The position numbers and the translations under genes are program-made. This document shows positions 2,170 through 37,207 of a DNA stretch of 44,680 nt, piece by piece. The first letter of the stretch is position 1. Each line of letters begins with the position of its first letter. The DNA is from Candidatus Staskawiczbacteria bacterium RIFOXYB1_FULL_37_44 (GTDB lineage Bacteria > Patescibacteriota > Minisyncoccia > Minisyncoccales > Staskawiczbacteraceae). Under the pieces are notes generated by a model. That model ran no database searches, had not been told where the DNA came from, and was given only the letters and a program-made list of their open reading frames with translations. The stretch is from the NCBI GenBank assembly GCA_001822065.1, contig MHPJ01000009.1, forward strand, positions 38,663 to 83,342. Reading direction: 5' to 3'.

Positions 2170-2799
2170 ATGAGAACATCCTATATCAAAGATTGCGTGG
2201 AGACAATAATAAATATGGCCCAGGATAATAATATAAGCTCTCCGCTTAACGTTCTTGAATTATTTGCAGGGGAAGGGTCCATTTTTACTCAATATTTGGC
2301 CAAAAAATGTAATAAGGTTATTGGGTGGGAAATAAAAAATGAATTTGCCTCTGATTTCGAGAAAAATGTCCCAAATGGCCGATTTTTCTGTAAAGATACT
2401 ATAAGCCTGCTTCAACAAGAGAATTCTGATGATTTTTTAAACGATGCCAATATTATTTGCGTTGATAATCCCCTAGGAAAATATGGAGATGAATATTTCG
2501 AACATTTTAAGTTTATAAATCATATCCATAAACTTATACATAGGCCATCTATTTTAGCAATAGATATTATTAAAAAACCATATAATATTGAAGGCAATTT
2601 AGAATGGGTTGAGGAAAGAAAAAGGTTTTATAATATCGACAAAGATGAACTAGATATGGGTTATGCGTTAAATTTTTATAAAAAAATTCTAGAAAAGCAA
2701 GGATTATCCGTTGGGGATGCAAAAATTGTTTGTCGGGAATTAGATGGAGATTTGGATTATTTTTATATGATAATTTGTGTAGTTGATAAAGCAAAATGA
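2170..2799 (+). CDS. Class I SAM-dependent methyltransferase, RsmD-like layout with degenerate motif IV
   Basis: Motif I VLELFAGEGS, then an acidic residue after beta2 (GWEIKN), then ANIICVDNPLGKY where DPPY/NPPY would sit in RsmD-type N-methyltransferases. Confidence 0.55.
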   Translation: MRTSYIKDCVETIINMAQDNNISSPLNVLELFAGEGSIFTQYLAKKCNKVIGWEIKNEFASDFEKNVPNGRFFCKDTISLLQQENSDDFLNDANIICVDNPLGKYGDEYFEHFKFINHIHKLIHRPSILAIDIIKKPYNIEGNLEWVEERKRFYNIDKDELDMGYALNFYKKILEKQGLSVGDAKIVCRELDGDLDYFYMIICVVDKAK

Positions 2800-2806
2800 T
2801 AAAATT

Positions 2807-3454
2807 ATGAAAGTAGCAATTAGCCAACCAGAACATTTTCCATATTTGGGATACTTTGAAAAAATGGCAGTATGCGATATTTTTGTAATTCTTGATAATG
2901 TCCAATTTTCTGGTCCTAGAAGCTGGCAAAACAGGAATAGATTTATAAATAAGAGTGGCGAGTGGCAGTGGTTCACCGTGCCCGTAGCTAAAAACTCTTA
3001 CTTTGAAAAAATAAATGATGTTAAAGTTGCACCTGATTTAGGTTGGAGAAATAAATTGATCAAAACTTTATCTTTAAATTTTCCAGGTAATCCTAAATTT
3101 GATTATGAAAAAATATATAACAGCGGTAAACTGGTGGACATTAATATGGAATCAATTAATTTGTGTCGAAATATTTTAGAAATTAACACTCCTATGATAA
3201 AAAGTTCTGAAATTCCCGTTATTGGGATAAAGGCAGAATTGATCTATAATATATGCAAATACCTTAAAGCTGACATTTATATTTCTGGCCAGGGGGCAAA
3301 GGACTATCTGAAAGATGCAAAATTTAAAGATATAGAAATAAAATTTATAGAGCCTAAAGTAAAAACACTAGAATCAACGATTGTTTTAATAAGCAATGAT
3401 GATAAATTGAAGGAAGCTAAGGAAATAATAAAAAAATTGCGTAACAATGAATAA
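2807..3454 (+). CDS. WbqC-like family protein
   Basis: MKVAISQPEHFPYLGYFEKMAVCDIFVILDNVQFSGPRSWQNRNRF...WFTVPV matches the characteristic WbqC N-terminus (MQPyfFPyiGYF...DdVqf...wqNRNrI). I chose the ATG at 2807 over the ORF-track ATG at 2783, which overlaps the previous gene. Confidence 0.75.
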   Translation: MKVAISQPEHFPYLGYFEKMAVCDIFVILDNVQFSGPRSWQNRNRFINKSGEWQWFTVPVAKNSYFEKINDVKVAPDLGWRNKLIKTLSLNFPGNPKFDYEKIYNSGKLVDINMESINLCRNILEINTPMIKSSEIPVIGIKAELIYNICKYLKADIYISGQGAKDYLKDAKFKDIEIKFIEPKVKTLESTIVLISNDDKLKEAKEIIKKLRNNE

Positions 3455-4244
3455 TTATAATAAAATTATAATTGGCGATATAGAATTTACAGCCTTTGAA
3501 GCCGGAGAATTTAGAATGGGCGCGCTCGGCGGTGATAAATACGCAAATATATTAGAGAAAAATCGCAATACAAAAATTGAAGATTTTTATTTACAGTCCA
3601 CACCAGTTACAGTTGGACAATATTTTTCTTTTTTAAAGGATACTGGTTATGACAGTAATTATCAAATTGAAATTTGGGATGGAGATGATTGGGTTAAAGG
3701 GCCTCATTTTTTAGAAATTAATGGAAAGGGCAATGATTATCCTGTCGTAGGAGTTTCTTTTATTGATGCAGAAAATTACATTGATTGGCTATCAAAAAAG
3801 TATGGAAAAAAATTTAGACTTCCCACAGAGGCCGAATTTGAATACGCTGCCAAAAGTTATTGTAAATGTAAGTCTGAATGTCGGTATGCAAATAAAGCTC
3901 AGGAGTTAAAAATAGTTAGAAATGAAGGAGAAATGCCAGCAAAAGGTCCTAAAAAAATAGAGGAGACCGTAAAAACTGATTCTGGTTTGTATGCAATGCA
4001 CGGAGCGATATGGCAATGGTGCAATGATTGGTTTTTCTATTACGACGAAAGAGACGTTGAAAATCCAAAAGGCCCGAAAGGAGAACCTTTATATGCTCCA
4101 TGGAAAGGGGAAAAATGGTCGCCTGGCAAGACTATCAGGGGCGGATCGTTTTCCTATCCGTTTTATTACGCACGCTGTTCTGACAGACATTATTCAAAAA
4201 TAGAGGATAGAAACTATAATGTTGGATTCAGATTATGTATTTGA
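3447..4244 (+). CDS. FGE-sulfatase (SUMF1/EgtB C-terminal) family protein lacking the FGE catalytic cysteine pair
   Basis: Family hallmarks are present: TPVTVGQYFSFL, YPVVGVSFIDAENYIDWLSKKYGKKFRLPTEAEFEYAA, MHGAIWQWCNDWF and RGGSF...NVGFRLC. The CxxxxC segment of true formylglycine-generating enzymes is replaced by SYPF. Confidence 0.8.
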   Translation: MNNYNKIIIGDIEFTAFEAGEFRMGALGGDKYANILEKNRNTKIEDFYLQSTPVTVGQYFSFLKDTGYDSNYQIEIWDGDDWVKGPHFLEINGKGNDYPVVGVSFIDAENYIDWLSKKYGKKFRLPTEAEFEYAAKSYCKCKSECRYANKAQELKIVRNEGEMPAKGPKKIEETVKTDSGLYAMHGAIWQWCNDWFFYYDERDVENPKGPKGEPLYAPWKGEKWSPGKTIRGGSFSYPFYYARCSDRHYSKIEDRNYNVGFRLCI

Positions 4245-4275: not shown

Positions 4276-5268
4276 ATGCCATCATTATACGAAGAATATA
4301 GTCCATGGAAAGGAGCTCATTTTATGGATAGATTGGCCGCCATCAAGAAGGGTGGTAAATGTGCCCCTGTGAGTTTGCAAATATCTTTGACTAATAGATG
4401 TTGCGCAAAATGCTATTATTGCTATGTGGAAAATAGTAATAAATTTAAAGTAGATATTGATACAGAAAAACTTTTTAAAGTACTTGAGGAGGCTAAAGAA
4501 ATGGGAGTGAAAGCGATAGAAATAACCGGCGGCGGGGAACCTCTAGTTCATCCCGATGCGTGGAAGATTATTTCTAAAATAAATGAACTTGGTCTTGATT
4601 TAGGATTGATTACTAACGGAATCATGCTTGATCCGGAAAAATTAGGTAAAGCAACATGGGTAAGAATAAGCCTTGATTCATTTAATCCTGCAACATACAA
4701 AAAGATCAAAGGCGTTAATATGCCTGATATGAAGCTGATAGGGAAAATGTGTAAAAATAAAAATGTAACCGTTGGAGCATCATGCGTAATTACGCCATAT
4801 AATTATAAAGAGCTTTATAGTTTTGCGAAGAAGGCTAAGGAAATGGGATTTAGTAATGTTTGTTTCAAGCCCGTTGAAGTTGAAAATAGAAAAGTATTGA
4901 ATCGCTTTGAAAAAATTGTAAAAGAGCAGATGGATAAAGCGATAAAACTAACGGATAATAATTTTAAAGTATTTTCTTTGGAATTAAGAAGAAATGATAA
5001 CACGGAAGCAAAACCGTTTCCGCTATGCATACAACAGCATTTAGCCGCTTTTATTTGGTCTAATGGAGATATCTATTCATGCTGCTCTCTTCAGGGAAAT
5101 AAAAATATGGTCGTAGGGAACATTTATAAAGGATCATTTAAAGATCAATGGTTTTCAAGGAAAATAATTGGAATAAAAGATTGCAAGATAGAGTGCTTTT
5201 TTGCCGGGAAAAATTCTTTTCTAAATTATTTGGTCGGGGATAATCCAAAACATGTAAATTTTATGTAA
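4276..5268 (+). CDS. Radical SAM enzyme with C-terminal twitch/partial-SPASM Cys motif
   Basis: CX3CX2C in LTNRCCAKCYYCYV, and a GGGEPL SAM-binding motif. The C-terminal CIQQHLAAFIWSNGDIYSC fits CX9-15GX4C and is followed by DCKIEC. Confidence 0.85.
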   Translation: MPSLYEEYSPWKGAHFMDRLAAIKKGGKCAPVSLQISLTNRCCAKCYYCYVENSNKFKVDIDTEKLFKVLEEAKEMGVKAIEITGGGEPLVHPDAWKIISKINELGLDLGLITNGIMLDPEKLGKATWVRISLDSFNPATYKKIKGVNMPDMKLIGKMCKNKNVTVGASCVITPYNYKELYSFAKKAKEMGFSNVCFKPVEVENRKVLNRFEKIVKEQMDKAIKLTDNNFKVFSLELRRNDNTEAKPFPLCIQQHLAAFIWSNGDIYSCCSLQGNKNMVVGNIYKGSFKDQWFSRKIIGIKDCKIECFFAGKNSFLNYLVGDNPKHVNFM

Positions 5269-5269
5269 T

Positions 5270-5974
5270 ATGAAAAAAGAAATTTTAAATAAAAAACCAG
5301 TTTTATTGGCTGTAATGGCGCACCCGGATGACGCAGAATTAAAATGTTATGGAACATTATGCAAATATTCAGAGATGGGCTTTGATTGCGTTTTATTGAT
5401 TATCTGCAGCGGTGAAAATGGAATATCCTTGAATGATAAAAAAAATCTGAATGTTAAAAGTATCCCAAAAAATGTCAGACTAGAAGAAACTATAACGGCG
5501 TTTAAAAATACCAGCGTGCATATTGATACTTTAAATTTTGATGATGGCAATATTTTTTTCGGCAGAAAATTAATAGAAGTAATAGAGCAAAAAATGAGGG
5601 AATATAAGCCGGAAATAGTTATAGCTCAATATGGGGATAGTTTGGGGGTAGACCATCAAGATCATGGTAATGCTGGAAGGGCAACAGTAAACTGTGCCAC
5701 AAGGTTAGATTTTGTTAAAAAAATATTACTTTGTGAGCCGCTTATGACACTCAGATCAGAATTTACGCCGAATTATTTTATAGATATTACTAAATATTTT
5801 CCTAAAAAAATTAAAGCGCTTGCTAGCCATAAGAGTCAGGAGGGCAGGTATTATCTTGAGGAAGAATATCATAATACTAAGGCGGATTTTTATGCGACAT
5901 CTGTCAGTTATAACAAAGCAAGGGAAGGAAATAAATATGAAGCATTTAAGGTGATTTATCAACTAGACGATTAA
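5270..5974 (+). CDS. PIG-L/LmbE family N-acetylglucosaminyl deacetylase
   Basis: VLLAVMAHPDDAELKCYGTL (AHPDD motif) and VDHQDHGNAG (HxDH zinc motif). Confidence 0.85.
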   Translation: MKKEILNKKPVLLAVMAHPDDAELKCYGTLCKYSEMGFDCVLLIICSGENGISLNDKKNLNVKSIPKNVRLEETITAFKNTSVHIDTLNFDDGNIFFGRKLIEVIEQKMREYKPEIVIAQYGDSLGVDHQDHGNAGRATVNCATRLDFVKKILLCEPLMTLRSEFTPNYFIDITKYFPKKIKALASHKSQEGRYYLEEEYHNTKADFYATSVSYNKAREGNKYEAFKVIYQLDD

Positions 5975-5976
5975 AT

Positions 5977-7200
5977 ATGGTCACACAGCAAGAAGGCAAA
6001 CAAATTAAAATATATTTTACTGGGGACATACATTCGAATATTCCTTATTCTATTGATTTGGTTGAAAAAATGTTTGATTTTAAAAAGGATAAATCATCGG
6101 TGTTGATTGATGCTGGAGATTTTTTCCAGGGGTCGCCGTTCTTTAATATTTTTGGAGGAAATCCGGAAAAGAAGATTTATAAGGAGTTATATGACATATC
6201 CATTCCCGGAAACCACGGATTCAAAATTGCAAAAAGCCTTAGAAATAAAGCTAATATTGTAAATGCCAATATTTACATGGGTGATGAGCCAGTTTTTCGA
6301 CAATTCCAAATATTAAAAAGGCAGGGAATGAAAATTGGTTTTGTGGGAATAATTTCGAAAGAAGCTTTTGACGCGATAGAAATGAAAGAAAGAAAAGGTC
6401 TGCAATTTAAAGATCCAATTCTGGTTTTTGAATCACTTGTCCCAAAATTACGATCAAAAGTAGATGCTGTGATATTGGTAAGCCACTCTGGTGTTGAATA
6501 TGATAAAAAGATATCGAGAGAAATCAAGGGTGTAGATGTCATTATAAGCAGTCATTGCCATTCTTCGTTTAAAAAAAATGATAAGTTGAATACAAAAATG
6601 ATAAAAGCACCGGAAATGGGGATGGGATTTGGTGAAATAAATATCGATAATAAATTTGCCATAGGGTTAAAAATTTATAAAATAAACAATAAATCGAAAT
6701 TATTTAATAAAAAAAATTTATTATTTTTCAATCGATACCTTAAAAAATACTACCAAGGAATGTCTCCGGTTGTTCTGTTAGTAGATTCAAATTTTTCTAA
6801 TAAATATGATAACCGTAAAGCTTTATGCAAATATATTTCTGGACGTGTCGGAAAATATTTTAATTCCGATATATGCGTCATTAATTATTTTTGCCTAAGA
6901 GATGTTTTTAAACAAGGGAATGTAACCAAAGAAGATGTTTATAGAATAGCGCCACTGGAAACAAAATTGGTTAAATTCGCTACTGATATAAAGGAATTTA
7001 ATGAAATAATTTCGGGAATAAGGAGAGAGACAAAGTCTTCATTGTGCATGTATAAAAATATTAATGATGGGAAGCATTTACAAATCATAACAACAGAATA
7101 TTTATTCAATAATTATTTTAGAGATTGCTTAAAGGATAAAAAGTATAAACAAGTTATCGATTTAGTTGAATTTATTTCTAAATACTTATTTAAAAAATGA
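5977..7200 (+). CDS. Calcineurin-like metallophosphoesterase, UshA/5'-nucleotidase-type
   Basis: The ordered motifs are YFTGDIHS (GDxH), DAGDFFQGS (GDxxQG), IPGNHGF (GNH), VSHSG and SSHCH. The C-terminal half is long and poorly conserved. Confidence 0.7.
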   Translation: MVTQQEGKQIKIYFTGDIHSNIPYSIDLVEKMFDFKKDKSSVLIDAGDFFQGSPFFNIFGGNPEKKIYKELYDISIPGNHGFKIAKSLRNKANIVNANIYMGDEPVFRQFQILKRQGMKIGFVGIISKEAFDAIEMKERKGLQFKDPILVFESLVPKLRSKVDAVILVSHSGVEYDKKISREIKGVDVIISSHCHSSFKKNDKLNTKMIKAPEMGMGFGEINIDNKFAIGLKIYKINNKSKLFNKKNLLFFNRYLKKYYQGMSPVVLLVDSNFSNKYDNRKALCKYISGRVGKYFNSDICVINYFCLRDVFKQGNVTKEDVYRIAPLETKLVKFATDIKEFNEIISGIRRETKSSLCMYKNINDGKHLQIITTEYLFNNYFRDCLKDKKYKQVIDLVEFISKYLFKK

Positions 7201-7721
7201 TTTTAACAGGAGATTACATTTTTAAAGAGTTATTAAAGGGGAATATTAGTATTTACCCTTTTAAGCGTTCGCAAATTAATCCGAATAGCTATAATTATAG
7301 GCTTGGAAAAACTATCAAAGTATTTGATAAATTTGTTAATGGAAAAAGTGTTTTTAAAAAAGTTGTGATCCCGGAATCGGGTTACTTGCTTGAGCCCGGT
7401 AAAATGTACTTAGGTAACACATATGAATTTATCGGCAGTAAAAAGTATGCGATGTCATTAATAGGGCGCAGTTCAATGGGCAGGCTTGGTCTTTTTTTAC
7501 AGGTTTCTGCTAATCTTGGTCATACCACATCATATCATAAATGGACGCTTGAACTTGTAGCATTAAAGCCAATAAAAATTTATCCGAAAATGATTATTGG
7601 ACAGATATCTTTTTGGACAAATTTTGGCAGAATTTATAAATATGGCGGTAGGTATGCAAAGATAAATAAACCACAAGAATCTTTTATTAATATAAACATA
7701 CATGATTTTAACAGGGTATAA
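7197..7721 (+). CDS. dCTP deaminase/dUTPase-fold protein, paralog A (Glu and RSSxxR kept, IDxG motif lost)
   Basis: MILTGDYIFKEL...INPNSYNYRLG and IGRSSMGRLGLF...SANLGHTTSYHKWTLELVA...IGQISFW align to Dcd (GRSSLARLGL...HRIDPGWSGCIVLEF). ATGA overlap with the upstream gene. Confidence 0.7.
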   Translation: MILTGDYIFKELLKGNISIYPFKRSQINPNSYNYRLGKTIKVFDKFVNGKSVFKKVVIPESGYLLEPGKMYLGNTYEFIGSKKYAMSLIGRSSMGRLGLFLQVSANLGHTTSYHKWTLELVALKPIKIYPKMIIGQISFWTNFGRIYKYGGRYAKINKPQESFININIHDFNRV

Positions 7722-8232
7722 AATTATCAAAGAGGTTAAAGGCGGTAAAATTAAAATTACTCCTTTTGATCATAATAGAATTACAACAAACTCCTATGAT
7801 TTGAGGCTTGGGAGCAAGCTTATTAGGTATACATCGAAAACTCTTGATCCTAAAATTAAGCCCGATTTTAAAATTATGGATATACCAAAGAGCGGAATGA
7901 TAATGCAGGCGGGGGATTTTTTATTGGGAGAGACAGAAGAGATGGTGGGTAGCGATTCTTATGTGCCTATAATACATGCAAAATCAGGAACAGCTCGCAT
8001 GGGATTATTCGTGCACGTAACAGCCGATTTAATTGATATAGGGTATTATGGAAAGTTTACTTTGCAACTTTTTGCGACATTGCCGGTTAAAATATATCCT
8101 TATATGCTTATAGCTCAAGTAAGCTTTTGGCAACCTAAGGGAAAGATAGTTCTATACAAGGGGAAATATCAAAATAGCGACGGGCCAAAGCCGTCAATGT
8201 GTTACAAAGATTTCGGCAAAATAAATAAATGA
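7702..8232 (+). CDS. dCTP deaminase/dUTPase-fold protein, paralog B (IDxG kept, catalytic Glu replaced by Gln, RSS replaced by KSG)
   Basis: MILTGYKIIKEV...TTNSYDLRLG and HAKSGTARMGLFVHVTADLIDIGYYGKFTLQLFA...IAQVSFW. It overlaps paralog A by 20 nt and the next gene by ATGA. Confidence 0.7.
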   Translation: MILTGYKIIKEVKGGKIKITPFDHNRITTNSYDLRLGSKLIRYTSKTLDPKIKPDFKIMDIPKSGMIMQAGDFLLGETEEMVGSDSYVPIIHAKSGTARMGLFVHVTADLIDIGYYGKFTLQLFATLPVKIYPYMLIAQVSFWQPKGKIVLYKGKYQNSDGPKPSMCYKDFGKINK

Positions 8233-9323
8233 AAATATTAACAGGAATAGATTTACCATTTGCCCCGCTTAGCGGAAGTTTTACGCTTTGCGATGATTTA
8301 TATGGCAATATAAATGCACAAGATAGTGTTAAATTTTTATCATTACATTCAAATGCTGGGAAAAAATGGTCGAAAATCAAAGAAGTAGATTTATTGAATA
8401 TCAAGAAGGAAAAAAATACTAATGGGTATGCTAAATATGTTGATAAAATACATTCCTCGATTGAAAAACAAATAAATACTTTTAAACCCGATATAATACA
8501 TATTCAGCATTTTTGCTTTGGTATGGCGGCGGCTTTTAGTGAAATAGATTTGCCAAAGATCGCCTTTTGTCACGGGACTGATGTTGAATTTGCCATTAAG
8601 AACGAAATCCACAGGAAGACTATTAAAAAAGTATTGGAATCATCGGAGAAAGTTGTATTTCCAACAAAAAGCATGTTTTATGATTATAAAAAGCTTTTTC
8701 CTAACATAAAGATAAATCCGGTCATAATACCGTGGGGTATCTCGGATGAAATTTTTAAAATCAACAGATCTAGAACGATTTGGCATAAAAATAAATGCAA
8801 TTTGTTGTATGCTGGGCGTTTGAGTAAAAATAAAGGGGTTGATACAATTATAAAGTCGATGAAATTTTTAGATAAGAGATTTGTTTTAACTATCATCGGT
8901 GACGGAGATCAAAAAGATGCTTTGATCAAATTGGTAAAAGAATACGGGTTATCTTTAAGAGTAAAATTTTTAAAATTTCAACCCAGGAAGGAGCTTTGGA
9001 AGCTTTTTAATAATTATGACATAATGATTATATCCACTAAAATTATTGAAGCTTTTTGCTTGACAGCTATAGAGGGCCAAGCACACGGTTTGCCTGTAAT
9101 TCATTCAGATATCGGAGGAACGAAAGATGTTATTGGATTATCAGCACTTAGATTTAGATCGGGAAATTGTTTAGATTTATCGGAAAAGATTAAATCTTTG
9201 GCATTTGATTTCAAGAAAATGAATCAGTATTCAAAGATTGGTTTTAAGAATGCCAAAAAATATAAGATATCTCAAACAAAAAGGAAGATTTGGGATATTT
9301 CACGTAAAGTAATTAAAAAATAA
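8229..9323 (+). CDS. GT4-family (GT-B) glycosyltransferase
   Basis: LLYAGRLSKNKGVD, and an EX7E motif in EAFCLTAIEGQAHGLPVIHSDIGG. Confidence 0.8.
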   Translation: MKILTGIDLPFAPLSGSFTLCDDLYGNINAQDSVKFLSLHSNAGKKWSKIKEVDLLNIKKEKNTNGYAKYVDKIHSSIEKQINTFKPDIIHIQHFCFGMAAAFSEIDLPKIAFCHGTDVEFAIKNEIHRKTIKKVLESSEKVVFPTKSMFYDYKKLFPNIKINPVIIPWGISDEIFKINRSRTIWHKNKCNLLYAGRLSKNKGVDTIIKSMKFLDKRFVLTIIGDGDQKDALIKLVKEYGLSLRVKFLKFQPRKELWKLFNNYDIMIISTKIIEAFCLTAIEGQAHGLPVIHSDIGGTKDVIGLSALRFRSGNCLDLSEKIKSLAFDFKKMNQYSKIGFKNAKKYKISQTKRKIWDISRKVIKK

Positions 9324-9328
9324 AAAAT

Positions 9329-10090
9329 ATGACAGATTTTATTATTCTCGCTGCAGGGAAAGGCACTAGATTGAAAACGGAAACATCTAAAGCTTTAATC
9401 AAAGTCCTCGGGATTCCTATGATACATTATACCGTCGATTTAGCTGAATCGACTGGAATATGTAGTAATATTTTTGTCGTAACATCAAACGTTAATCGCG
9501 AAGATATCGAAAAAGAATTATCGGGGGAGAAATGCTATTTTATTATACAGAAAGAACAACTTGGGACAGGAGATGCCGTGAGGTCTGTTATTGATAACAA
9601 TGCAAATTTAAACGATAATGTTCTTGTATTGTTAGTGGATCATCCTTTAATACCTTTAAATGCGATATTAAAGTTAAATGATGTACATATTAAGGGCGAT
9701 TCACCATTAAGTATGGTGACGGCTTGTGTCCCTAATTATGAAGGAATATATGCTGGTTTTTATCATGATGGGAGAATAAAACGAGATGAGAATGGAAATA
9801 TATTGGGAATAATCGAGCCGACGGAGGCGACAGAATATGAAATGAAAATAAAAGAAATAAATACATCCCTTTATATGTTCAATAGAGATTGGCTTATTGA
9901 AAATATGTCAAAGATTAAAATTAACGAGAAAAAGGGTGAATATTATTTAACAGATCTCGTAAAGCTGGCGGTTGATCAAGGCGTTAAAATAGGATCGGTT
10001 CAGATAGATGCAAAAGATAGTGCAGGAATAAATACTCAAAAAGATTTAGAAACTGTCGAGTCTTTTTTAAAGGAAAAAAATCATGAATAA
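9329..10090 (+). CDS. Sugar-1-phosphate nucleotidyltransferase resembling the GlmU N-terminal domain (no acetyltransferase domain)
   Basis: ILAAGKGTRLKTETSKALIKVLGIPMI, QKEQLGTGDAV and NTSLYMF. At 253 aa it covers only the pyrophosphorylase domain. Confidence 0.75.
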   Translation: MTDFIILAAGKGTRLKTETSKALIKVLGIPMIHYTVDLAESTGICSNIFVVTSNVNREDIEKELSGEKCYFIIQKEQLGTGDAVRSVIDNNANLNDNVLVLLVDHPLIPLNAILKLNDVHIKGDSPLSMVTACVPNYEGIYAGFYHDGRIKRDENGNILGIIEPTEATEYEMKIKEINTSLYMFNRDWLIENMSKIKINEKKGEYYLTDLVKLAVDQGVKIGSVQIDAKDSAGINTQKDLETVESFLKEKNHE

Positions 10091-11174
10091 GACTATAATA
10101 TTTACCGGTGGGGGGACGGCAGGCCATGTTACTCCTAACTTAGAAATAATTCCATTTTTTATTAACAATGGGTGGAATGTTTTCTATGTTGGATCAAAAT
10201 ACGGTATGGAAAAAGAGATTGTAACTAAATCAGATGTTAGAATAAAATTTTTACCCATACACGCTGGCAAATTACGCAGGTATTTTTCATTACAAAACGT
10301 TGTAGATATATTTTTGATTGGACTAGGCATAATTGAAGCATTTATTATAATAAAAAAATATAAACCCGCTATCATATTCTCTAAGGGTGGGTTTGTATCT
10401 TTTCCAGTTGTTTTTGCGGCTTGGTTGAATATGGTTCCTGTGCTAATACATGAATCTGATGTTACTCCGGGGTTGTCGAATAAACTTTCAGGTTTTTTTG
10501 CTTCAAAAATATTTTCTACATTCTCTGAAACAAGTAAATATACAAATAACAGCAAATTAGAATATATCGGACCAATAATACGCAGTGGTTTTAAAAATGC
10601 CAACTATAAAAAAGGATTTGAATACTGTGGCTTTAATAAAAATATACCAGTAATCTTGGTTATGGGCGGTAGTCTCGGTTCGGAAAACATAAACAAAGCG
10701 ATAAGGAGAGATTTAAATAAACTAATAAATAATTTTCAAATAGTTCATATTTGCGGAAAGAGAAATGTCGATAAAAATATAAAATTTGATAATTATAAGC
10801 AGTTTGAATATATCAATGATCAATTTCCTGATGTTTTAGCAATGTCGAAATTGGTTGTCGCTAGAGCTGGCTCAAATTCAATATTTGAATTTTTATTTAT
10901 GAAGAAGCCGATGATATTAATTCCACTACCGCCTAAATCAAGCCGAGGAGATCAGATAATGAACGCAAAGATATTTAAGGAAAAAGGTTATTGCGAGGTT
11001 ATTAATGATGAAGATTTAGAAAATGTTTCATCGGATAATGTTATAAGAGTAGCTTACAAAAATAAGGATTATTATATAAAGAATATGCAGAATGTAAATT
11101 TTTCAGATAATGCAAAGAAAGTTTATGAATTTATTACAAAGAAATTGGCGAATAAGTGTAAATTGAATAAATAA
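10083..11174 (+). CDS. murG: MurG, UDP-GlcNAc:lipid I GlcNAc transferase
   Basis: IIFTGGGTAGHVTPNL, GKLRRYFSLQNVVD, FSKGGFVSFPVV, VPVLIHESDVTPGLSNK, VARAGSNSIFE and SSRGDQIMNA closely follow streptococcal-type MurG. Confidence 0.85.
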   Translation: MNKTIIFTGGGTAGHVTPNLEIIPFFINNGWNVFYVGSKYGMEKEIVTKSDVRIKFLPIHAGKLRRYFSLQNVVDIFLIGLGIIEAFIIIKKYKPAIIFSKGGFVSFPVVFAAWLNMVPVLIHESDVTPGLSNKLSGFFASKIFSTFSETSKYTNNSKLEYIGPIIRSGFKNANYKKGFEYCGFNKNIPVILVMGGSLGSENINKAIRRDLNKLINNFQIVHICGKRNVDKNIKFDNYKQFEYINDQFPDVLAMSKLVVARAGSNSIFEFLFMKKPMILIPLPPKSSRGDQIMNAKIFKEKGYCEVINDEDLENVSSDNVIRVAYKNKDYYIKNMQNVNFSDNAKKVYEFITKKLANKCKLNK

Positions 11175-11177
11175 TTT

Positions 11178-11663
11178 ATGATTATTTTTATCAATGGTTC
11201 TATAAATTCCGGAAAGACCACAGTTGCTAAAATTTTATTTAAAGAACTACCCAATTTTGTTTTGGTGGAAATTGATGCGTTTCATGAAATGATAAATTGG
11301 ATGCCGATAAGTCAAGCTGTTCCGATTAACCTTGAGAACGCAGTTTTTGCAATTAAAAATTTTGCAAGAAAAGGGATTAACTCAATAGTCCCATATCCAT
11401 TGTCCCAAAAAAATTATGATTACATGATGGGCGAGCTTAAAGCTGTTAATACTAAAATTTACGTTTTTACATTATCTCCAAAATTTGATAAAGCACTTAC
11501 AAATCGAGGAGAGAGGAAACTTACCAATGAAGAAAAAGACCGAATTAAATATCATTATGAAATCGGTATTCATGCGCCAAATTTTGGAGAAATTATTGAT
11601 AATTCCGAACAAAGCCCGGAAGAAACCGCAAAAGTAATTTTAGATAAAATAAAAATCGCATAA
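11178..11663 (+). CDS. Small P-loop kinase (AAA_33 / chloramphenicol-phosphotransferase-like)
   Basis: Walker A in IIFINGSINSGKTTVAKIL. 161 aa. Last gene of the operon. Confidence 0.55.
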   Translation: MIIFINGSINSGKTTVAKILFKELPNFVLVEIDAFHEMINWMPISQAVPINLENAVFAIKNFARKGINSIVPYPLSQKNYDYMMGELKAVNTKIYVFTLSPKFDKALTNRGERKLTNEEKDRIKYHYEIGIHAPNFGEIIDNSEQSPEETAKVILDKIKIA

Positions 11664-11807: not shown

Positions 11808-12809
11808 ATGAACAGATCAGTCGCAAACGCGCAGCCGATTTCATTGGTTCTCTCCAGAAAGAGAATCAAGAAAAAAGTTGTGGCAAAAAAGACGGTTGGA
11901 GAGTTCTTTAACTTTCACATCCGCCTTCTGTTGATCGAGCTTTTCGGCTTGATTTTCAATCACGACTGGATATTTTGGCTGATAGGATCAGCCAACAGGA
12001 AGCTCGGACTGATAAAGTCTGTTTTTCTTGTATATCCAGCCACCGAGGAGTACGAAAGAGCGTACACCTATAAGAAAAGGGCAAAGAGAATTGAATGGAG
12101 CCCTTGGCTTGTGGGTTTGTTCTGGCAAAACGGAAAAGTTGGCGTAAAATTCGCCATTTCTTCAAGCAACAGTCAATTTGTAGATCCGGGCAATAAGGAA
12201 AAACTCCGGAGCGTTGCCGAAAGGATGGAGAAAATCAGGCAACTTTTTCGCGCCGAGCATAAAACTTTTGCCGGCATTCTTCCCGGGGTGTTGCTTGCCA
12301 ATAGAATGGTGAGAAAAACTCCGGAAGCTGATGTAACGGTTGAAGTTGTGTGCCAGGCAATTGGCAAAGTAAAGTCGCTTGAAGGATTAGGCGATGATAC
12401 GCCAATTATTGTCCTTGGCGGGAGAGGATTTATAGGACGACGAGTTGTTTCCTCTCTGCCAAAGAACACTGCTTATTGTGTGGACATCGCAGGAAATAAT
12501 GGTCAATATGCTTGGCCGTCTCATTTGCAGGGCAGGCCCGTGTTGCTCGTCAACATAAGCTTGAACTCTGCATTGGGGCAATATGTCCATCTGCTTTGGC
12601 CCGAGGTTGTGATTCTCAACGAAGTTTACCCGGAGCCATCGCAGGAGTTAGTTGAACGATTAGAGGCTGTTGGCTCTCGCTGCTGGCATGTTGCGGGAGT
12701 TAAGGCAGGGGCTTTGCCTTCATTTCCCGGCGGTTATCAAGGGGGGATTCCTTGTTGTGCCGCATGGCAATCCGATGAGATGGAGGTTTTGCTCAAAAAG
12801 ATCGTTTAG
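11808..12809 (+). CDS. GC-anomalous NAD(P)-binding Rossmann protein, possibly of the acyl-ACP-reductase/shikimate-DH-like family
   Basis: IIVLGGRGFIGRRVVSSL is a dinucleotide-binding motif. The overall order of segments loosely parallels cyanobacterial acyl-ACP reductase (tentative, from memory). Hand counts of two 60-nt lines give 50-52% GC against about 30-38% in the flanks. Confidence 0.6.
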   Translation: MNRSVANAQPISLVLSRKRIKKKVVAKKTVGEFFNFHIRLLLIELFGLIFNHDWIFWLIGSANRKLGLIKSVFLVYPATEEYERAYTYKKRAKRIEWSPWLVGLFWQNGKVGVKFAISSSNSQFVDPGNKEKLRSVAERMEKIRQLFRAEHKTFAGILPGVLLANRMVRKTPEADVTVEVVCQAIGKVKSLEGLGDDTPIIVLGGRGFIGRRVVSSLPKNTAYCVDIAGNNGQYAWPSHLQGRPVLLVNISLNSALGQYVHLLWPEVVILNEVYPEPSQELVERLEAVGSRCWHVAGVKAGALPSFPGGYQGGIPCCAAWQSDEMEVLLKKIV

Positions 12810-32403: not shown

Positions 32404-33435
32404 ATGAGTAAAAGCACGCTGCTGGTTTCACAAAGTTCGTCGCTCCCGTTTGAGGAGCCGGTGTTTGTCCAGTCGAAAGAGTTGGACCTGGGTTGCCTGC
32501 CCGATTGGTCGGCAATACTTGAAGACATGCCCGTTGGCGTGGGCGTGAAAGGGGGAATTGCCAGAAAAATCCTGAAAGTGATTTCAGGGTTGAATGGTGA
32601 ACATCCGGACTTTGCGGCTGAAATGGACGGCAACGGCGATATTGATATTGTTGTTGCTGTTCCAAGGGTTTCCGCAGACCTGCGTCTGGCGATTCGGCAA
32701 CACTTCACCGGAATGAAATTTGGCGAAATGCAAGTGATGGCCAAGGACATCGAAGTTTCTGACAACCTTGAGCGGTATTTCCGTGTTAGGGATGTCACAA
32801 TGAACGAAGTCTTGGCTTTCCGCGTGAGCCATAATACGGTGATGCTGTACTTCACTGCGACCGCCCAGCAGGACATTAAAGGCGGGTTGATTTCACCGTC
32901 GATCCACTGTTTGCACACGAAGTTCGGCCAGGTTTGGCGGTATGATGAGAGAGGAAGATTTGTCATCTGCCAAAGCTTTGATCGCTGCCTGATTCGGTGG
33001 CTCAAGGGTCATGGACTTTACTACGGGATTCCAATGAGCACCTGGGATCACTATCGGGAAAGAAAGCTCGGTTTCCGGAGCATTTTCCGAATCTTCAAGA
33101 ATTTTGTAGGCGACGAGCAGAAGTTTCGTTTGTGCCATCGGCACTTGGCGGAGCTTGGGCTTATTGCGCGCGATTCTGACCCTAACTTGTTGTGGGGGTC
33201 GGCGATGTTTAATCTCAATGCGCGTCTGGCAAAGTTCGGCAAGAGGCTTTCATTTGTGGAGCCGGATGCCAAACAGATTGAAGATTGGATTTTGCGTAAA
33301 GAGCAAGAGTTCTGCGATTGGCAGTTTGATCGCTCAACGAGAGTGGCTATGGGCATGGAAGTTGAACCCGATACCGAGGCGCAGGTTTTCCTGCCCGACG
33401 GCCTCAAAAACTTCCCGGCATTTTACGGCCAGTAA
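32404..33435 (+). CDS. GC-rich divergent nucleotidyltransferase with CCA-adding enzyme/poly(A) polymerase head-domain motifs
   Basis: VKGGIARKIL...NGDIDIVV parallels GGxVRD...DxD. VRDVTMNEVLAF parallels RRDFTINA. TAQQDIKGGLISPS parallels the GG..DL....IR segment. The C-terminal ~170 aa are unrecognised. A sample line counts 53% GC. Confidence 0.6.
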   Translation: MSKSTLLVSQSSSLPFEEPVFVQSKELDLGCLPDWSAILEDMPVGVGVKGGIARKILKVISGLNGEHPDFAAEMDGNGDIDIVVAVPRVSADLRLAIRQHFTGMKFGEMQVMAKDIEVSDNLERYFRVRDVTMNEVLAFRVSHNTVMLYFTATAQQDIKGGLISPSIHCLHTKFGQVWRYDERGRFVICQSFDRCLIRWLKGHGLYYGIPMSTWDHYRERKLGFRSIFRIFKNFVGDEQKFRLCHRHLAELGLIARDSDPNLLWGSAMFNLNARLAKFGKRLSFVEPDAKQIEDWILRKEQEFCDWQFDRSTRVAMGMEVEPDTEAQVFLPDGLKNFPAFYGQ

Positions 33436-34145: not shown

Positions 34146-35024
34146 GTGATACACACAGCTGTTTTAAAAAAAGAAGTTTTAGAATATTTAGACCCAAAGC
34201 AAAACGAAAATTTTGTTGATTGCACAGTGGGCGAGGGAGGGCATTCTGAAGATATTTTAAATAGTACAGGCCCGAATGGAAAAGTTTTGGGTATTGATTT
34301 AGACCCCCAGCAAATTGTGTATAGCCATTGGCTAGAAGCAATTTATAAAGACAGAGTGGTTTTGACAAACGATTCCTACACAAATTTAAAAGAAATTATT
34401 GAAAGGAAAAATTTTGGCCCAGTTTCCGGAATTCTGCTTGATTTGGGAATGTCTTCGGCCCAGCTGGAAGGTACGCACAAGGGATTTTCTTTTCAGGTGG
34501 ACCAGGGTCTGGATATGCGATACAACGATTTGACCGGATATTTGACAGCAGAAAAAATTGTAAACGAATATCCGGAAGAAAAAATTGAGGAAATTTTACG
34601 GGACTACGGAGAAGAAAAATTTTCAAAGAAAATTGCAAAAAATATTGTTGAACAGCGTAAACAGGGGAGAATAAAAACCACGTTCCAGTTAATAGAAATA
34701 ATAAAAGACGCAACGCCAAGCGTGTATTGGCGGGGTAAAATACACTATGCCACCAGAACATTTCAAGCTTTACGGATTGCGGTAAATGACGAATTGGAAA
34801 ATATAAAAAGGGTTTTGCCGCAGGCGCTTTCTGTTTTACAGCCACAAGGAAGATTAGTTGTGATATCTTTCCACTCGCTGGAAGACAGAATTGTAAAAGA
34901 TTTTTTCAAAAAAAATAAATTATTTAAAATATTAACTAAAAAACCGGTTACAGCAGGCCGAGACGAACTTGGCAAAAATCCAAGATCGCGATCAGCTAAA
35001 TTGCGAGCTGTAATAAAGATATAA
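34146..35024 (+). CDS. rsmH: 16S rRNA (cytosine1402-N4)-methyltransferase RsmH
   Basis: GTG start. HTAVLKKEVLEYL, DCTVGEGGHS, LLDLGMSSAQL, FSF, DMRY, ISFHSLEDRIVK and RSRSAKLR. Confidence 0.9.
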   Translation: MIHTAVLKKEVLEYLDPKQNENFVDCTVGEGGHSEDILNSTGPNGKVLGIDLDPQQIVYSHWLEAIYKDRVVLTNDSYTNLKEIIERKNFGPVSGILLDLGMSSAQLEGTHKGFSFQVDQGLDMRYNDLTGYLTAEKIVNEYPEEKIEEILRDYGEEKFSKKIAKNIVEQRKQGRIKTTFQLIEIIKDATPSVYWRGKIHYATRTFQALRIAVNDELENIKRVLPQALSVLQPQGRLVVISFHSLEDRIVKDFFKKNKLFKILTKKPVTAGRDELGKNPRSRSAKLRAVIKI

Positions 35025-35028
35025 TAAT

Positions 35029-35364
35029 ATGACAACTACAGTATTAAATTTATCAAAAGTTAGCTTTCCTGAAATTAAAATAAGCTGGAAAATAGTTTGC
35101 TTTGCCGGCCTTTTTGCAAGTTTGTGCCTTTTGGTTTTTTATGTTTGGCAAATTAACGATTTGACAAAAGGGTCTTATTTGGTAAACACTTACGAAAACC
35201 AAATCAGCAAACTGTCATATGAAAATAAAAATTTGGAAGTTTCTTTTGCGGAAAGCAGCTTTTTGGGAAGCACCCTTGAAAAAATCCAGGCAATGAATTT
35301 TCAAAAAACAACTTCGGTAAAATATATACAAATTCCAGATAATTCAGTTGCAATTAAGAGATGA
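35029..35364 (+). CDS. ftsL: FtsL-like division protein
   Basis: A single TM segment plus a coiled coil (NQISKLSYENKNLEV). The call rests mainly on its position between rsmH and ftsI. Confidence 0.5.
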   Translation: MTTTVLNLSKVSFPEIKISWKIVCFAGLFASLCLLVFYVWQINDLTKGSYLVNTYENQISKLSYENKNLEVSFAESSFLGSTLEKIQAMNFQKTTSVKYIQIPDNSVAIKR

Positions 35365-37088
35365 AAAAGTTTGCGAATTGGAGGGTAAATACGGTTTCAA
35401 TTTTAATTTTTCTTTTCGGGGCAGCTGTGGTCAGCCGCCTGTTTTTTCTTCAAATTGTAGAACGCAAGCTTTTTGAGGCGCAAGCCTTGGGACAGCAAGT
35501 CGGCTTTTCAAGTATTACCGGTTCTCGCGGAGAAATTTTGTGCGAAAATAGCCAGGAAACAAAAGGGAAAAAGGGATCGGGCGAAGTTAAAAGTTTGGCA
35601 ATAAACAAAGATAGCTGGACAATTTCCGCAAATGTAAGCCAAATTCCAAACAAAGAATCTTTTGCTGAAATTCTCAGCAAAAATGTTAGCGAGACAAAAG
35701 AACAGATACTTTCAGAAATAAACGGCGCCGATTTATATGTTGTTTTAAAAAGAGATTTGCTGGTCAGTGAAATAGATAAAATAAAATTGCTTAATTTAAA
35801 GGGTTTGTCGTGGCAAAACACGCCCGAAAGGTTTTATCCTCAAGGAAATCTATCCTCGCAGGCTCTTGGATTTTTGGGCGGAGAGGGAGCTGGTCAATAC
35901 GGCGTTGAAGGCTATTATGACGAAATTTTAAAAGGCAAATCAGGAGTTAAAGAAGAAAAATCCGGCTTAGGCTCAATTTTTTCCGATTCAAGTCAAATTT
36001 CTTTGGACGGCTCTGATATTTATTTGACCATAGATTACAATATACAATTTCAGGCGGAAGCTTTGTTAAAAAAAGTAAAAGAAAAATTGGACATTGAATC
36101 CGGGCAGATAATTGTAATGAAACCCGATTCAGGCAGAATTCTGGCTATGGCTAATTTCCCGAGTTTTGATTTGAATAGTTTTTCAAAAGAAAAAGATTTG
36201 GGAATTTTTCAGAACAGCGCCGTGCAAAAACTTTTTGAGCCCGGCTCCATAATGAAACCTTTTACAATGGCTTCGGCTTTAAATGAAGGAAAGATAACTC
36301 CTGACTCAACCTATGTTGACACAGGATCCTTAAAATATGGAATATACACCATACATAATTTTGCCAATGAAGTTTATGATAAACAGACGATGACGCAAGT
36401 TTTGGAGAATTCAATAAATACCGGAGCGGTTTTTGCGCAAGAGCAAATTCCGCATAATATTTTTTTAGATTATTTGGATAAATTCGGATTTTTTGAAAAA
36501 ACCGGAATTGATTTGCAAGGCGAAGTTTACTCGCGCAATGATTTATTGAAAAATGGCTCTAATATTAACTTTGCCACGGCTTCTTTCGGGCAGGGAATTG
36601 AACTGACTCCAATTCAAATTGCAACGGGATTTTGCGCCATTGCAAACGGAGGAAAATTGGTAAAACCGTATATTGTTGAAAAAATTGTAAACGGAAAAGA
36701 TGAGTCAATAACAAAGCCTGAAATTTCCCAGCCCATTGTTTCCCAGCAGACAATTTCAAACCTAACTTCAATGTTAATTAACGTTGTTGATAAAGGGTTT
36801 AACAGCGTTGCAAAAGTTCCAGGATATTATTTGGCCGGTAAAACCGGAACCGCCCAAGTTCCGCTAAAAAATGGAAAGGGATACGAACCGGATAAAACAA
36901 TTCAAAGTTTTGTGGGTTATGGACCAGCATTTAACCCGCAATTTTTAATATTGGTTAAACTTGATAATCCAAAAGTTCCGAAGTCATCTTTATCAGCAGT
37001 TCCGGTTTTTAAGGAATTGGCGCAATATATAATAAATTACTGGAAAATCCCGCCAGACTACGATCCGGCAAAAATAGACAAAAAGTAA
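35361..37088 (+). CDS. ftsI: Class B penicillin-binding protein (FtsI/PBP2-type transpeptidase)
   Basis: An N-terminal TM segment and a PBP dimer domain. EPGSIMKPF gives SxxK, ENSINT gives SxN, and AGKTGTA gives KTG. Confidence 0.85.
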   Translation: MKKFANWRVNTVSILIFLFGAAVVSRLFFLQIVERKLFEAQALGQQVGFSSITGSRGEILCENSQETKGKKGSGEVKSLAINKDSWTISANVSQIPNKESFAEILSKNVSETKEQILSEINGADLYVVLKRDLLVSEIDKIKLLNLKGLSWQNTPERFYPQGNLSSQALGFLGGEGAGQYGVEGYYDEILKGKSGVKEEKSGLGSIFSDSSQISLDGSDIYLTIDYNIQFQAEALLKKVKEKLDIESGQIIVMKPDSGRILAMANFPSFDLNSFSKEKDLGIFQNSAVQKLFEPGSIMKPFTMASALNEGKITPDSTYVDTGSLKYGIYTIHNFANEVYDKQTMTQVLENSINTGAVFAQEQIPHNIFLDYLDKFGFFEKTGIDLQGEVYSRNDLLKNGSNINFATASFGQGIELTPIQIATGFCAIANGGKLVKPYIVEKIVNGKDESITKPEISQPIVSQQTISNLTSMLINVVDKGFNSVAKVPGYYLAGKTGTAQVPLKNGKGYEPDKTIQSFVGYGPAFNPQFLILVKLDNPKVPKSSLSAVPVFKELAQYIINYWKIPPDYDPAKIDKK

Positions 37089-37116: not shown

Positions 37117-37191
37117 GCTCCCATCGTCTAGCCCGGTTTAGGACGCGCCCCTCTCACGGGCGCAACGCCGGTTCAAATCCGGCTGGGAGCA
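37117..37191 (+). tRNA. tRNA-Glu (anticodon CTC), no encoded CCA
   Basis: GCTCCCA-TC-GTC-TAGCCCGGTTTAG-GAC-G-CGCCC-CTCTCAC-GGGCG-CAAC-GCCGG-TTCAAAT-CCGGC-TGGGAGC-A. The architecture matches E. coli tRNA-Glu, including the 3-bp D stem. Confidence 0.85.
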
Positions 37192-37207
37192 CAAATTTTG
37201 CAAATTT

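Follow-up and report, generated by a model that had tools for sequence, protein, structure and literature searches.

Partitioned catalytic residues in a conserved pair of dCTP deaminase-fold paralogues from Candidatus Staskawiczbacteria suggest a mixed oligomeric enzyme

The trimeric dUTPases and dCTP deaminases (Dcd) make up a superfamily of textbook homotrimers with three identical active sites, which lie in the clefts between subunits (PMC4827122). In the bifunctional DCD-DUT enzymes, which are homotrimers or hexamers with active sites at their interfaces, a single chain carries both the Asp of motif III and the Glu of the pocket. E. coli Dcd (1xs1) has the same fold, retains the Asp as Asp128 and is a dTTP-regulated housekeeping enzyme, encoded by one gene that does not stand in a secondary-metabolite-like cluster. 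Its Ser111, Arg115 and Glu138 are reportedly the residues of deamination, while Asp128 is said to bind the 3'-OH. Here we describe a different arrangement in a 44,680-nucleotide stretch of Candidatus Staskawiczbacteria bacterium RIFOXYB1_FULL_37_44 (contig MHPJ01000009.1, positions 38,663 to 83,342, forward strand; hereafter the window), in which two overlapping genes, A and B, encode DCD-fold paralogues that divide the two carboxylates between them. Firm observations on the sequence features of the pair, its conservation and co-inheritance, its natural fusions and its conserved gene cluster are, taken as a whole, best explained if A and B together make up a single enzyme as its two kinds of subunit, most likely in a mixed trimer, an explanation towards which we lean with modest confidence. 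From the same observations we infer a composite active site, deamination in the A pocket and a role in natural-product synthesis.

The original prediction, made by eye, recognized the two open reading frames as DCD-fold paralogues overlapping by 20 nucleotides, and this is borne out. Both match PF22769 (DCD) from end to end (A, 4.2e-26; B, 4.1e-30), both start with ATGATTTTAACAGG (MILTG), and the two share 40% identity (E = 4e-40). Its motif register also agrees with a HMMER alignment to the DCD-DUT structures of M. tuberculosis (Dcd:dut, 2qxx/2qlp) and B. halodurans (4xjc). In that alignment GRSSMGR of A and AKSGTAR of B both fall on GKSSLGR, and both LGHTTSYHKWTLEL of A and LIDIGYYGKFTLQL of B fall on IDPGFSGHITLEL. 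Motif II of A reads G90-R-S-S-M-G-R96, with Ser92 and Arg96, and is followed by the pocket hairpin Q102...G108-H109-T-T-S-x-H114-x-W116-T-L-E119 and a tail Y149-x-G-R-Y...P-Q-E161-S. His109 takes the place of the motif III Asp (LGHTTS against IDPG in Dcd), and Glu119 is kept (WTLEL). The corresponding elements of B are H92-A-K-S95-G-T-A-R99, the hairpin H105...L-I-D112-I-G...T-L-Q122 and a canonical C-terminal lid, Y-K-G-K-Y-Q-N-S-x-G-P-x-P-S; here Asp112 is kept (LIDIG), and Gln122 stands in place of Glu (FTLQL). Against the TIGR02274 equivalog cut-off of 92.8 bits, A scores below (59.8) and B above (107.1). Neither protein matches PF00692, the trimeric dUTPase family, at E ≤ 0.01. The tails of both are of the Dcd type (Y-x-G-K-Y-Q...), and DCDs have no motif V (PMC4827122).

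Foldseek retrieves DCD-DUT and Dcd structures for the pair with template modelling scores of 0.70-0.74 and E = 4e-11. The best structural matches are the bifunctional DCD-DUT enzymes, at 25-29% identity, and no closer solved structure than these was found. AlphaFold2 monomer models confirm the fold, with motif II, the pocket loops and the tails modelled at a predicted local distance difference test score below 50. Such loops fit elements that become ordered only in the oligomer, and no geometry is readable from them in these models. A metal site formed by His109, His114 and Glu119 of A was considered and rejected: with a spacing of five residues on a β-hairpin, neighbouring members of the set would point to opposite faces, and the models are unreliable in this region.

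The alignment shows a partition of the catalytic residues, A having the pocket Glu without the motif III Asp, and B having the pocket Asp with Gln at the position of Glu. Phosphoanhydride hydrolysis of the dUTPase kind requires the motif III Asp, whose replacement by Asn abolishes dUTPase catalysis but not binding (PMC4827122). The earlier idea of a reciprocal loss of motifs stands for the carboxylates, Asp in A and Glu in B, and does not stand for motif II of B. There, KSG retains Ser95 and Arg99, the counterparts of E. coli Ser111 and Arg115. Since both are still present, KSG is, as aligned, a variant of motif II rather than a loss, which leaves Glu as the sole clear loss in B; the variant resembles the usual motif II of dUTPases (consensus Pro-Arg-Ser-Gly). 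The Ser and Arg of motif II, which extend into the pocket of an adjoining subunit, are present in both A and B and invariant in both families. As for the full canonical set, the proper alignment that had been proposed as a check finds it in neither protein, owing to His109 in A and Gln122 in B. By the same alignment, Asp and Glu sit 10 residues apart on one pocket hairpin, and neither protein has both. Because the two belong to one hairpin and no chain carries both, no A/B interface can rebuild the canonical site, and the notion that complementary degeneracy restores a complete one has to be given up. The Ser/Arg/Glu set of E. coli Dcd, on the other hand, could be provided by A on its own or by A and B jointly. 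A and B thus resemble the known DCD-DUT enzymes in fold, length, motif II Ser and Arg, pocket hairpin and C-terminal lid, and differ from them in that the carboxylates are split over two obligatorily co-inherited paralogues, one of which (A) fails TIGR02274, and in sequence, identity being only 25-32%.

Database searches at E ≤ 1e-3 return 2299 homologues of A and 1045 of B, the closest at 65-95% identity. With thousands of homologues, A and B are not chance open reading frames. Most of the homologues come from metagenome-assembled genomes of Patescibacteria (65-72% identity), to which the closest relatives of A and B belong, and the two match lists have contigs in common. The organism itself recurs in at least 38 blocks of a metagenome collection. 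Among 121 A and 121 B sequences, the residues typical of each family do not vary. For A these are N28-P-N-S-Y-N-Y, GRSSxGR, Q102 and S-A-N-L-G-H-T-T-S-x-H-x-W-T-L-E; for B they are T-T-N-S-Y-D-L, H-(G/A)-K-S-G-T-A-R, H105, T-A-D-L-I-D-I-G and T-(F/L)-Q-L. Decay of a tandem duplication, with one or both copies reduced to a functionless pseudoenzyme, would explain why each copy is without one canonical catalytic carboxylate. The replacement residues are themselves near-invariant, however, over thousands of homologues in several phyla, and because of this conservation decay is practically excluded.

To define the reach of the family, a pattern scan was run over one genome per species (185,579 species genomes). 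A-type relatives account for 532 of the 550 matches and so occur in at least 532 species genomes, a figure limited by the patterns used; their carriers are bacteria of the Candidate Phyla Radiation (CPR), DPANN archaea, Proteobacteria, Chlamydiae, Firmicutes and actinomycete plasmids. Eighty loci were examined, chosen as those most similar to A of the window, so that neighbour frequencies derived from them are biased. They come from Patescibacteria, Saccharibacteria, Nano- and Woesearchaeota, Bdellovibrionales, Parachlamydiaceae, one cyanobacterium, Alpha- and Gammaproteobacteria (including Pseudomonas batumici, Photorhabdus viridis, Bordetella tumbae and Facilibium), Bacilli and Clostridia (including Paenibacillus tundrae), and actinomycetes such as Micromonospora, Nonomuraea and Streptosporangium; the pair is also found on 18 plasmids. 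Every full-length A-type protein among the 80 loci has His, Asn or Gln at the Asp position and keeps the Glu, and nearly all B-types keep the Asp and have Gln (rarely Met) at the Glu position. Only the B subclade that includes the window has KSG; other B proteins have RSS, KSS or RSG.

The two genes are adjacent or near each other at 75 of the 80 loci. A precedes B in 66 of 78 loci and follows it in seven, and 30 of the 66 have a 4-nt overlap between the two. In a tree rooted by DCD-DUT enzymes and a third paralogue, A and B are each monophyletic and form sister clades. Pairwise distances in the two families correlate at r = 0.82, a value reached in none of 2000 permutations. As judged from these phylogenies, this shows a single ancient duplication followed by joint inheritance and horizontal transfer.

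An exhaustive profile search (170 representatives at E ≤ 1e-30) revealed multi-domain proteins. P0279 (466 aa) consists of three DCD domains which score against the profiles in the order B-like, B-like, A-like, and its homologues P0397 and P0398 (70-77% identical, 463-466 aa) come from independent assemblies, one of them a contig of 147 kb. Three elements are perfectly conserved in these proteins, namely the B-type motif II HNKSGTAR of domain 1 and, in domain 3, the A-type pocket DLGHTGVRHRWTLEI / IDADLGHTGVRHRWTLEIRC and the A-type tail SGAQES. Motif II of domain 3 is itself degenerate (GLESMAA), that of domain 2 is degenerate and variable (NKAATAA, NKSTTAA, NKSRTAS), and the B-like domains are without tails and without the Asp. 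Exactly one pocket, of A type, and one motif II, of B type, are therefore intact, and they reside on different domains, as predicted for active sites built in intersubunit clefts. To judge by these domain arrangements, A-type and B-type units can occupy one trimer, and the surviving elements point to a mixed trimer whose site combines the A pocket with the Ser and Arg of B.

Other fusions show related patterns. The metagenomic triple-DCD proteins P0242 and P0245 (532 and 549 aa) have a canonical pocket, with both Asp and Glu, and a degenerate motif II on domain 1, and an intact GRSSIGR next to a dead pocket on domain 3; by their motifs they are natural pseudo-trimers with one predicted site. 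The two-domain protein P0277 carries GRSSTGR on domain 1 and an A-like pocket on domain 2. A precedent is a set of engineered, covalent dUTPase pseudo-heterotrimers with three units per chain, in which single sites were switched off and the sites thereby made non-equivalent (PMC4827122). Those are laboratory constructs, whereas P0279, P0397 and P0398, and likewise P0242 and P0245, are natural and appear to keep one surviving composite site. The earlier proposal of a hetero-oligomer with altered sites accordingly gains from the fusions of B-B-A order, from co-occurrence at 75 of 80 loci and from the correlated sister clades.

The fusions also bear on a second possibility, in which a DCD-DUT enzyme has subfunctionalized into two homotrimers acting in sequence, A3 as a deaminase only (dCTP to dUTP) and B3 as a dUTPase only (dUTP to dUMP and pyrophosphate), with genes that stay together only because the steps are consecutive. 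A alone possesses Ser, Arg and Glu, and B proteins outside the CPR-like clade combine RSS, the Asp and a canonical lid. The bifunctional enzymes are the closest structures, the M. jannaschii E145Q variant was crystallized with pyrophosphate (according to the title of 3gf0), and the 5'-nucleotidase-like gene upstream of A would extend the series to the nucleoside. However, in the fusions it is the motif II of the A-type domain that has been lost and a B-type one that is perfectly conserved, and the degenerate B-like pockets imply that a dUTPase step is dispensable in the fusion. Strict 1:1 co-inheritance and translational coupling are also more typical of subunits. We regard two homotrimers as unlikely, though with a real share of the probability.

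For the mixed trimer, the key site would be the A pocket, closed by the A tail and completed by K-S-G-x-x-R of B (Ser95 and Arg99). This cleft would contain the full Ser/Arg/Glu set without the Asp, and it could carry out a hydrolytic substitution at C4 of a cytosine nucleotide with altered recognition of the 3' side of the sugar. The other cleft, between the B pocket and RSSxGR of A, would hold the Asp and the phosphate-binding residues and no Glu. A non-deaminating nucleotide site is expected there, either dUTPase-like (NTP to NMP and pyrophosphate) or regulatory. In the two-gene form found in the window both kinds of cleft are probably used, since both pockets, both motifs II and both tails are conserved in it. 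The DCD and DUT chemistries of the bifunctional enzymes thus appear, as far as the residues allow a reading, to have been split into different clefts of one particle. The pair would then provide or convert a pyrimidine nucleotide as building block for a specialized metabolite of nucleotide origin that is glycosylated and possibly aminoacylated, and its task in the window would be something other than the housekeeping dcd step. If this is true, the natural division of the carboxylates between two genes offers a clean example of a symmetric enzyme becoming asymmetric, a case strengthened by the single-chain pseudo-trimers with one composite site.

Several points weigh against this proposal. Structural modelling covered AlphaFold2 monomers, whose catalytic loops have low confidence, and the physical A-B complex is a prediction; the division of labour between deamination and 3'-OH residues is that reported for E. 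coli Dcd by Johansson et al. 2005. The B-B-A lineage is rare (three clusters at 90% identity), its B-like domains are more degenerate than B of the window, and it proves co-assembly for the fusion lineage only. The ring orders implied by P0279 and P0242 are irreconcilable under one handedness without a structure. Finally, the fused gene stands alone among housekeeping genes, between dxr/ispG and rimP-nusA, a context which fits an ordinary dCTP deaminase role, at least there.

That context favours a further reading, according to which the pair is a divergent housekeeping dCTP deaminase serving dTTP synthesis in reduced genomes, and its neighbours are coincidental. Annotation pipelines name both proteins dCTP or deoxycytidine deaminase, B passes TIGR02274, and many carriers are symbionts with small genomes. 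Such a role is difficult to reconcile with the absence of a full canonical residue set from either protein, with the patchy occurrence (532 loci in 185,579 species genomes, within the reach of the patterns) and with carriage on actinomycete and Rhizobium plasmids. At four loci, moreover, a third DCD paralogue with both carboxylates shares the operon, and the same non-housekeeping neighbours recur across phyla. We consider the housekeeping assignment improbable.

Three further observations concern DCD-fold relatives. The third paralogue, with both Asp and Glu, is found in L037 (8061-8630), L063 (8083-8649), L067 (7157-7795) and L068 (8060-8617), where it comes after B in clusters that open with an AIRS/PurM-like gene, giving three different DCD-fold genes in a row. 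Fusions of about 810-840 aa join a DCD domain to PPDK_N and a PEP-utilizer swivel domain in Streptomyces (L078-L080) and in P0260, P0268, P0269, P0271, P0282 and P0285. Their DCD domain is B-like (Asp kept, Glu replaced by Gln), no A-type partner lies nearby, and they look like a separate, uncharacterized use of a non-deaminating pocket; L078-L080 were set aside. In P0252 (231 aa) an A gene seems to run into the end of a B gene as the result of a deletion or an assembly error, and this protein was not used as evidence.

In the window, A and B are part of a run of genes on one strand (Table 1). The stop codon of the metallophosphoesterase gene and the start codon of A share ATGA, as do the stop of B and the start of the GT4 gene, which makes these a translationally chained block of four genes. 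The methyltransferase at the head of the run has no direct BLAST link to other clusters and its membership is tentative; the Streptomyces cluster described below opens with a gene of the "rRNA adenine N-6-methyltransferase family." Likewise, the kinase at the far end has no BLAST link to neighbour family c6 or to other cluster kinases. The MurG-like GT28 gene is a cluster glycosyltransferase and not part of the division and cell wall (dcw) operon, which starts 23 kb away at about 34.1 kb.

Table 1. Features of the A/B gene cluster (positions within the window)
Feature	Position	Strand	Basis
Small class I methyltransferase, probable first cluster gene	2170..2799	+	Weak RsmD/Erm-like matches
WbqC-family protein	2783..3454	+	Homologues in L037 (Paenibacillus) and L083 (Streptomyces)
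FGE-sulfatase/EgtB-C-terminal-like protein	3447..4244	+	Family recurs in two other A/B operons
Radical SAM/SPASM enzyme	4276..5268	+	Profile matches; BLAST to cluster counterparts
PIG-L family deacetylase (BshB/MshB-like)	5270..5974	+	33% identity to L083 PIG-L, E 5e-34
Metallophosphoesterase, UshA/5'-nucleotidase-like	5977..7200	+	26% identity, E 1e-43, to Streptomyces homologue
Subunit A, DCD fold, 174 aa	7197..7721	+	PF22769, HMMER alignment
Subunit B, DCD fold, 176 aa	7702..8232	+	PF22769, HMMER alignment
A/B overlap, 20 nt (A stop region with B start)	7702..7721	+	Overlapping genes usual at related loci
GT4 glycosyltransferase	8229..9323	+	30% identity, E 2e-57, to Streptomyces NBC_00239 GT4
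Sugar-1-phosphate nucleotidylyltransferase, GlmU N-terminal-domain-like	9329..10090	+	
GT28 (MurG-like) glycosyltransferase	10083..11174	+	46% identity to Paenibacillus L037, E 8e-117; 32% to Streptomyces L083
Small P-loop kinase (CPT/dNK-like), possible cluster member	11178..11663	+	

The placement of A and B inside a glycan-type operon had been thought unusual. This view did not survive comparison, as the same gene set surrounds A and B on a Streptomyces plasmid and in Paenibacillus tundrae, and the glycan-operon context is the rule for one branch of the A/B family. On the plasmid of Streptomyces sp. NBC_00239 the order is Erm-like methyltransferase, phosphodiesterase, TauD, A, B, PIG-L, WbqC and GT4, continuing with a ProRS-like protein, GT28, HIT, a short-chain dehydrogenase/reductase, two radical SAM enzymes, an LD-carboxypeptidase and a LysRS-core-like protein. 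P. tundrae has an AIRS-like gene, A, B, the third DCD gene, GT28, PIG-L, TauD, radical SAM and WbqC. In Streptomyces NBC_01562, A and B follow a MurA-like gene and a metallophosphoesterase gene, with the same 4-nt overlap. On Streptomyces plasmids, the homologous metallophosphoesterase or phosphodiesterase gene either immediately precedes A (L082) or is separated from it by one gene (L083). By BLAST, eight genes of the window have homologues in the NBC_00239 cluster and six in that of P. tundrae. The eight linked genes are the cluster core (A, B, PIG-L, WbqC, GT28 and radical SAM) together with GT4 and the metallophosphoesterase, at E values of 1e-8 to 1e-117. In clusters of this type GT4, metallophosphoesterase, TauD and methyltransferase genes are variable members. 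We infer that A and B belong to a conserved cluster of 8-12 genes that includes WbqC, radical SAM, PIG-L, GT4, GT28 and nucleotidyltransferase genes. In a metagenomic variant of the locus (L085, 4628-5999), the nucleotidyltransferase gene after GT4 is shortened and followed by an rve-family integrase of an insertion sequence, so that this population has a cluster broken in its downstream half.

Neighbours were counted at 73 related loci. A class I methyltransferase like MccD of the microcin C pathway lies directly upstream of A in 39 of them (PDB 5fcd, E = 5.5e-22; next best, 4e-7), a stand-alone paralogue of the alanyl-tRNA synthetase (AlaRS) catalytic core occurs in 31 (profile E = 2.5e-41), and 28 loci have an MccF-clade S66 hydrolase (E = 1e-83 to 1e-35, vs 3e-17 for LdcA). 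Pyridoxal-phosphate decarboxylases of the ornithine/diaminopimelate class, the fold class of MccE1, are present at 19 loci, and divergent class II LysRS paralogues at 14. MccD-, MccE1- and MccF-like genes are found all together at 15. Other neighbours encode ATP-grasp ligases, extra copies of LeuRS or class I LysRS, a divergent ProRS, HIT proteins and histidine phosphatases; exporters of the major facilitator superfamily lead the remaining operon genes, ahead of NUDIX, HD, carbamoyltransferase and AMP-binding enzymes. For neighbour families c13 and c6 there was no informative PDB or Pfam match beyond the P-loop.

A well-endowed example is Pseudomonas batumici UCM B-321 (L045, 2223-13378), where a LeuRS copy, an unknown gene, the MccD-like methyltransferase gene, A, B and DUF1826 are followed by genes for an aldo/keto reductase, a glyoxalase, an α/β hydrolase, an ATP-grasp enzyme and the AlaRS-core paralogue, with a divergent LysR regulator. 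A comparable gene set is found in Photorhabdus viridis (L038). Both are good experimental entry points, and the P. batumici strain is cultivable. Just downstream of CPR-type A/B clusters (L003, 6921-8036 on the minus strand; also L007, L008, L011, L013, L015 and L017) is a gene matching NF051887, the "PheS-related mystery ligase SrmL" (398 bits); its usual partner is a protein of about 80-110 aa.

These neighbours recall known pathways. In microcin C synthesis, MccD and MccE1 place an aminopropyl group on the phosphoramidate, and MccF and the HIT protein MccH confer immunity by cleaving aminoacyl-nucleotides (PMC8323819). At the related loci MccD is represented by a close homologue, MccE1 by a decarboxylase of its fold class and MccF by S66 hydrolases of its own clade, and MccH has a counterpart in the HIT protein of the Streptomyces A/B locus. 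MccB, a ThiF-like nucleotidyltransferase, is found neither among the window genes nor among the 25 most frequent Pfam families of 133 further operon genes, a count that leaves room for rare cases; precursor-peptide genes were not searched for. The truncated AlaRS-like AcmF (ascamycin) and the IleRS-like SbzA (SB-203208) aminoacylate nucleoside or sulfonamide antibiotics, the former acting on a nucleoside (PMC12945691). The stand-alone AlaRS-core and divergent LysRS and ProRS paralogues of the A/B clusters are likened to them by enzyme type. From this context, the most economical reading is that A and B mark clusters for exported, nucleotide-derived metabolites, often aminoacylated or glycosylated, in which the pair would act on a pyrimidine nucleotide at the start of the pathway. 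Against it stand the lack of MccD-, MccF- and aminoacyl-tRNA synthetase-like genes in the window cluster, which has the glycosyl, deacetylase and radical SAM part, the dependence of the natural-product reading of this locus on its Streptomyces and Paenibacillus counterparts, and the bias in neighbour frequencies noted above.

A further branch of clusters brings up defence and DNA modification. Here a P-loop protein, A, B, a cytidine/blasticidin-S-deaminase-like protein and a methyltransferase follow one another, with or without UGPase, a glycosyltransferase and HAD, on linear plasmids of actinomycetes and on a Rhizobium etli plasmid. In the latter (pRetMIM1e; L081, 14081-15016) a 311-aa "hypothetical protein" fuses the P-loop protein (c6) to the deaminase-like protein; both halves are separate genes flanking A and B on the actinomycete plasmids. 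The order on the actinomycete plasmids would suit a plasmid- or phage-type DNA hypermodification system, with a T-even-like dCTPase, kinase, methyltransferase and glycosyltransferases, or the pair might be an anti-phage module that depletes dCTP. A patchy distribution suggestive of horizontal transfer, carriage on plasmids and a weak resemblance of the window radical SAM enzyme to prokaryotic viperin (pVip) are in keeping with this. The known anti-phage dCTP deaminase has an N-terminal kinase-like domain. It shares the DCD-fold domain and the patchy distribution with A and B, which differ in being two proteins with split residues, in gene context and in having no PADLOC match; no PADLOC family is hit at E ≤ 1e-3 by A, B or their immediate neighbours. 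A phage origin is opposed by a single distant relative in 2.9 million viral contigs (IMG/VR) and by matches of only 33-37% in phage genomes, to ordinary dUTPases and unannotated or "hypothetical" proteins. Exporters, MccF/HIT-type immunity genes and aminoacyl-tRNA synthetase paralogues point instead to a diffusible product, and we judge defence or hypermodification highly improbable.

The radical SAM enzyme of the window (4276-5268) scores 7e-22 with the PADLOC prokaryotic-viperin models and 63 bits, below the cut-off, with NCBIfam viperin_w_prok. An assignment as viperin was rejected, as the match covers only the radical-SAM core, a SPASM domain is present, and MoaA/NirJ score equally.

A bolder extension makes the A/B heterotrimer the missing core enzyme of a large, unrecognized class of non-ribosomal aminoacyl- or glycosyl-nucleotide "Trojan-horse" compounds, produced by CPR bacteria, DPANN archaea, rhizobia, Photorhabdus, Pseudomonas and actinomycetes. 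In the B pocket, with the Asp kept and deamination off, an amine or amide instead of water would attack the α-phosphate. This would form an N-P bond and install the nucleotide without MccB, while the A pocket edits the base. The MccD- and MccE1-like enzymes would then aminopropylate the phosphate, and MccF/HIT proteins and extra aminoacyl-tRNA synthetase copies would protect the producer. We hold this scheme to be unlikely.

A literature search found no description of the A/B pair or its clusters. The fold and the superfamily are well known; the two-subunit organization with split residues, its single-chain derivatives and the association with these clusters appear undescribed. The name "dCTP/deoxycytidine deaminase" carried by thousands of genes from CPR, DPANN and plasmid genomes is probably wrong, an error that distorts the picture of nucleotide salvage reconstructed for these symbionts. 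As a genome-mining handle, the pair could also lead to new nucleotide antimetabolites and unusual nucleotide chemistry, and it marks clusters in organisms not known as antibiotic makers.

A few other features of the window deserve mention. The host genome is low in guanine and cytosine (GC, about 33%), and all window genes lie on the same strand. Two segments, 11808-12809 and 32404-33435, have a GC content of 44-48% (as does 1-1000) and encode proteins of 333 and 343 aa without a Pfam match, which may be acquired genes. The start of a dcw-type operon occupies 34146-37088 (RsmH/MraW, a small open reading frame of FtsL size and an FtsI-type penicillin-binding protein), and a tRNA-Glu gene (37117-37192) comes directly after the last of these. 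Farther on, a Cas4-like PD-(D/E)XK nuclease (37912-38748) and a ferric-reductase-like membrane flavoprotein (38655-40058) are encoded by reading frames that overlap by 94 nt.

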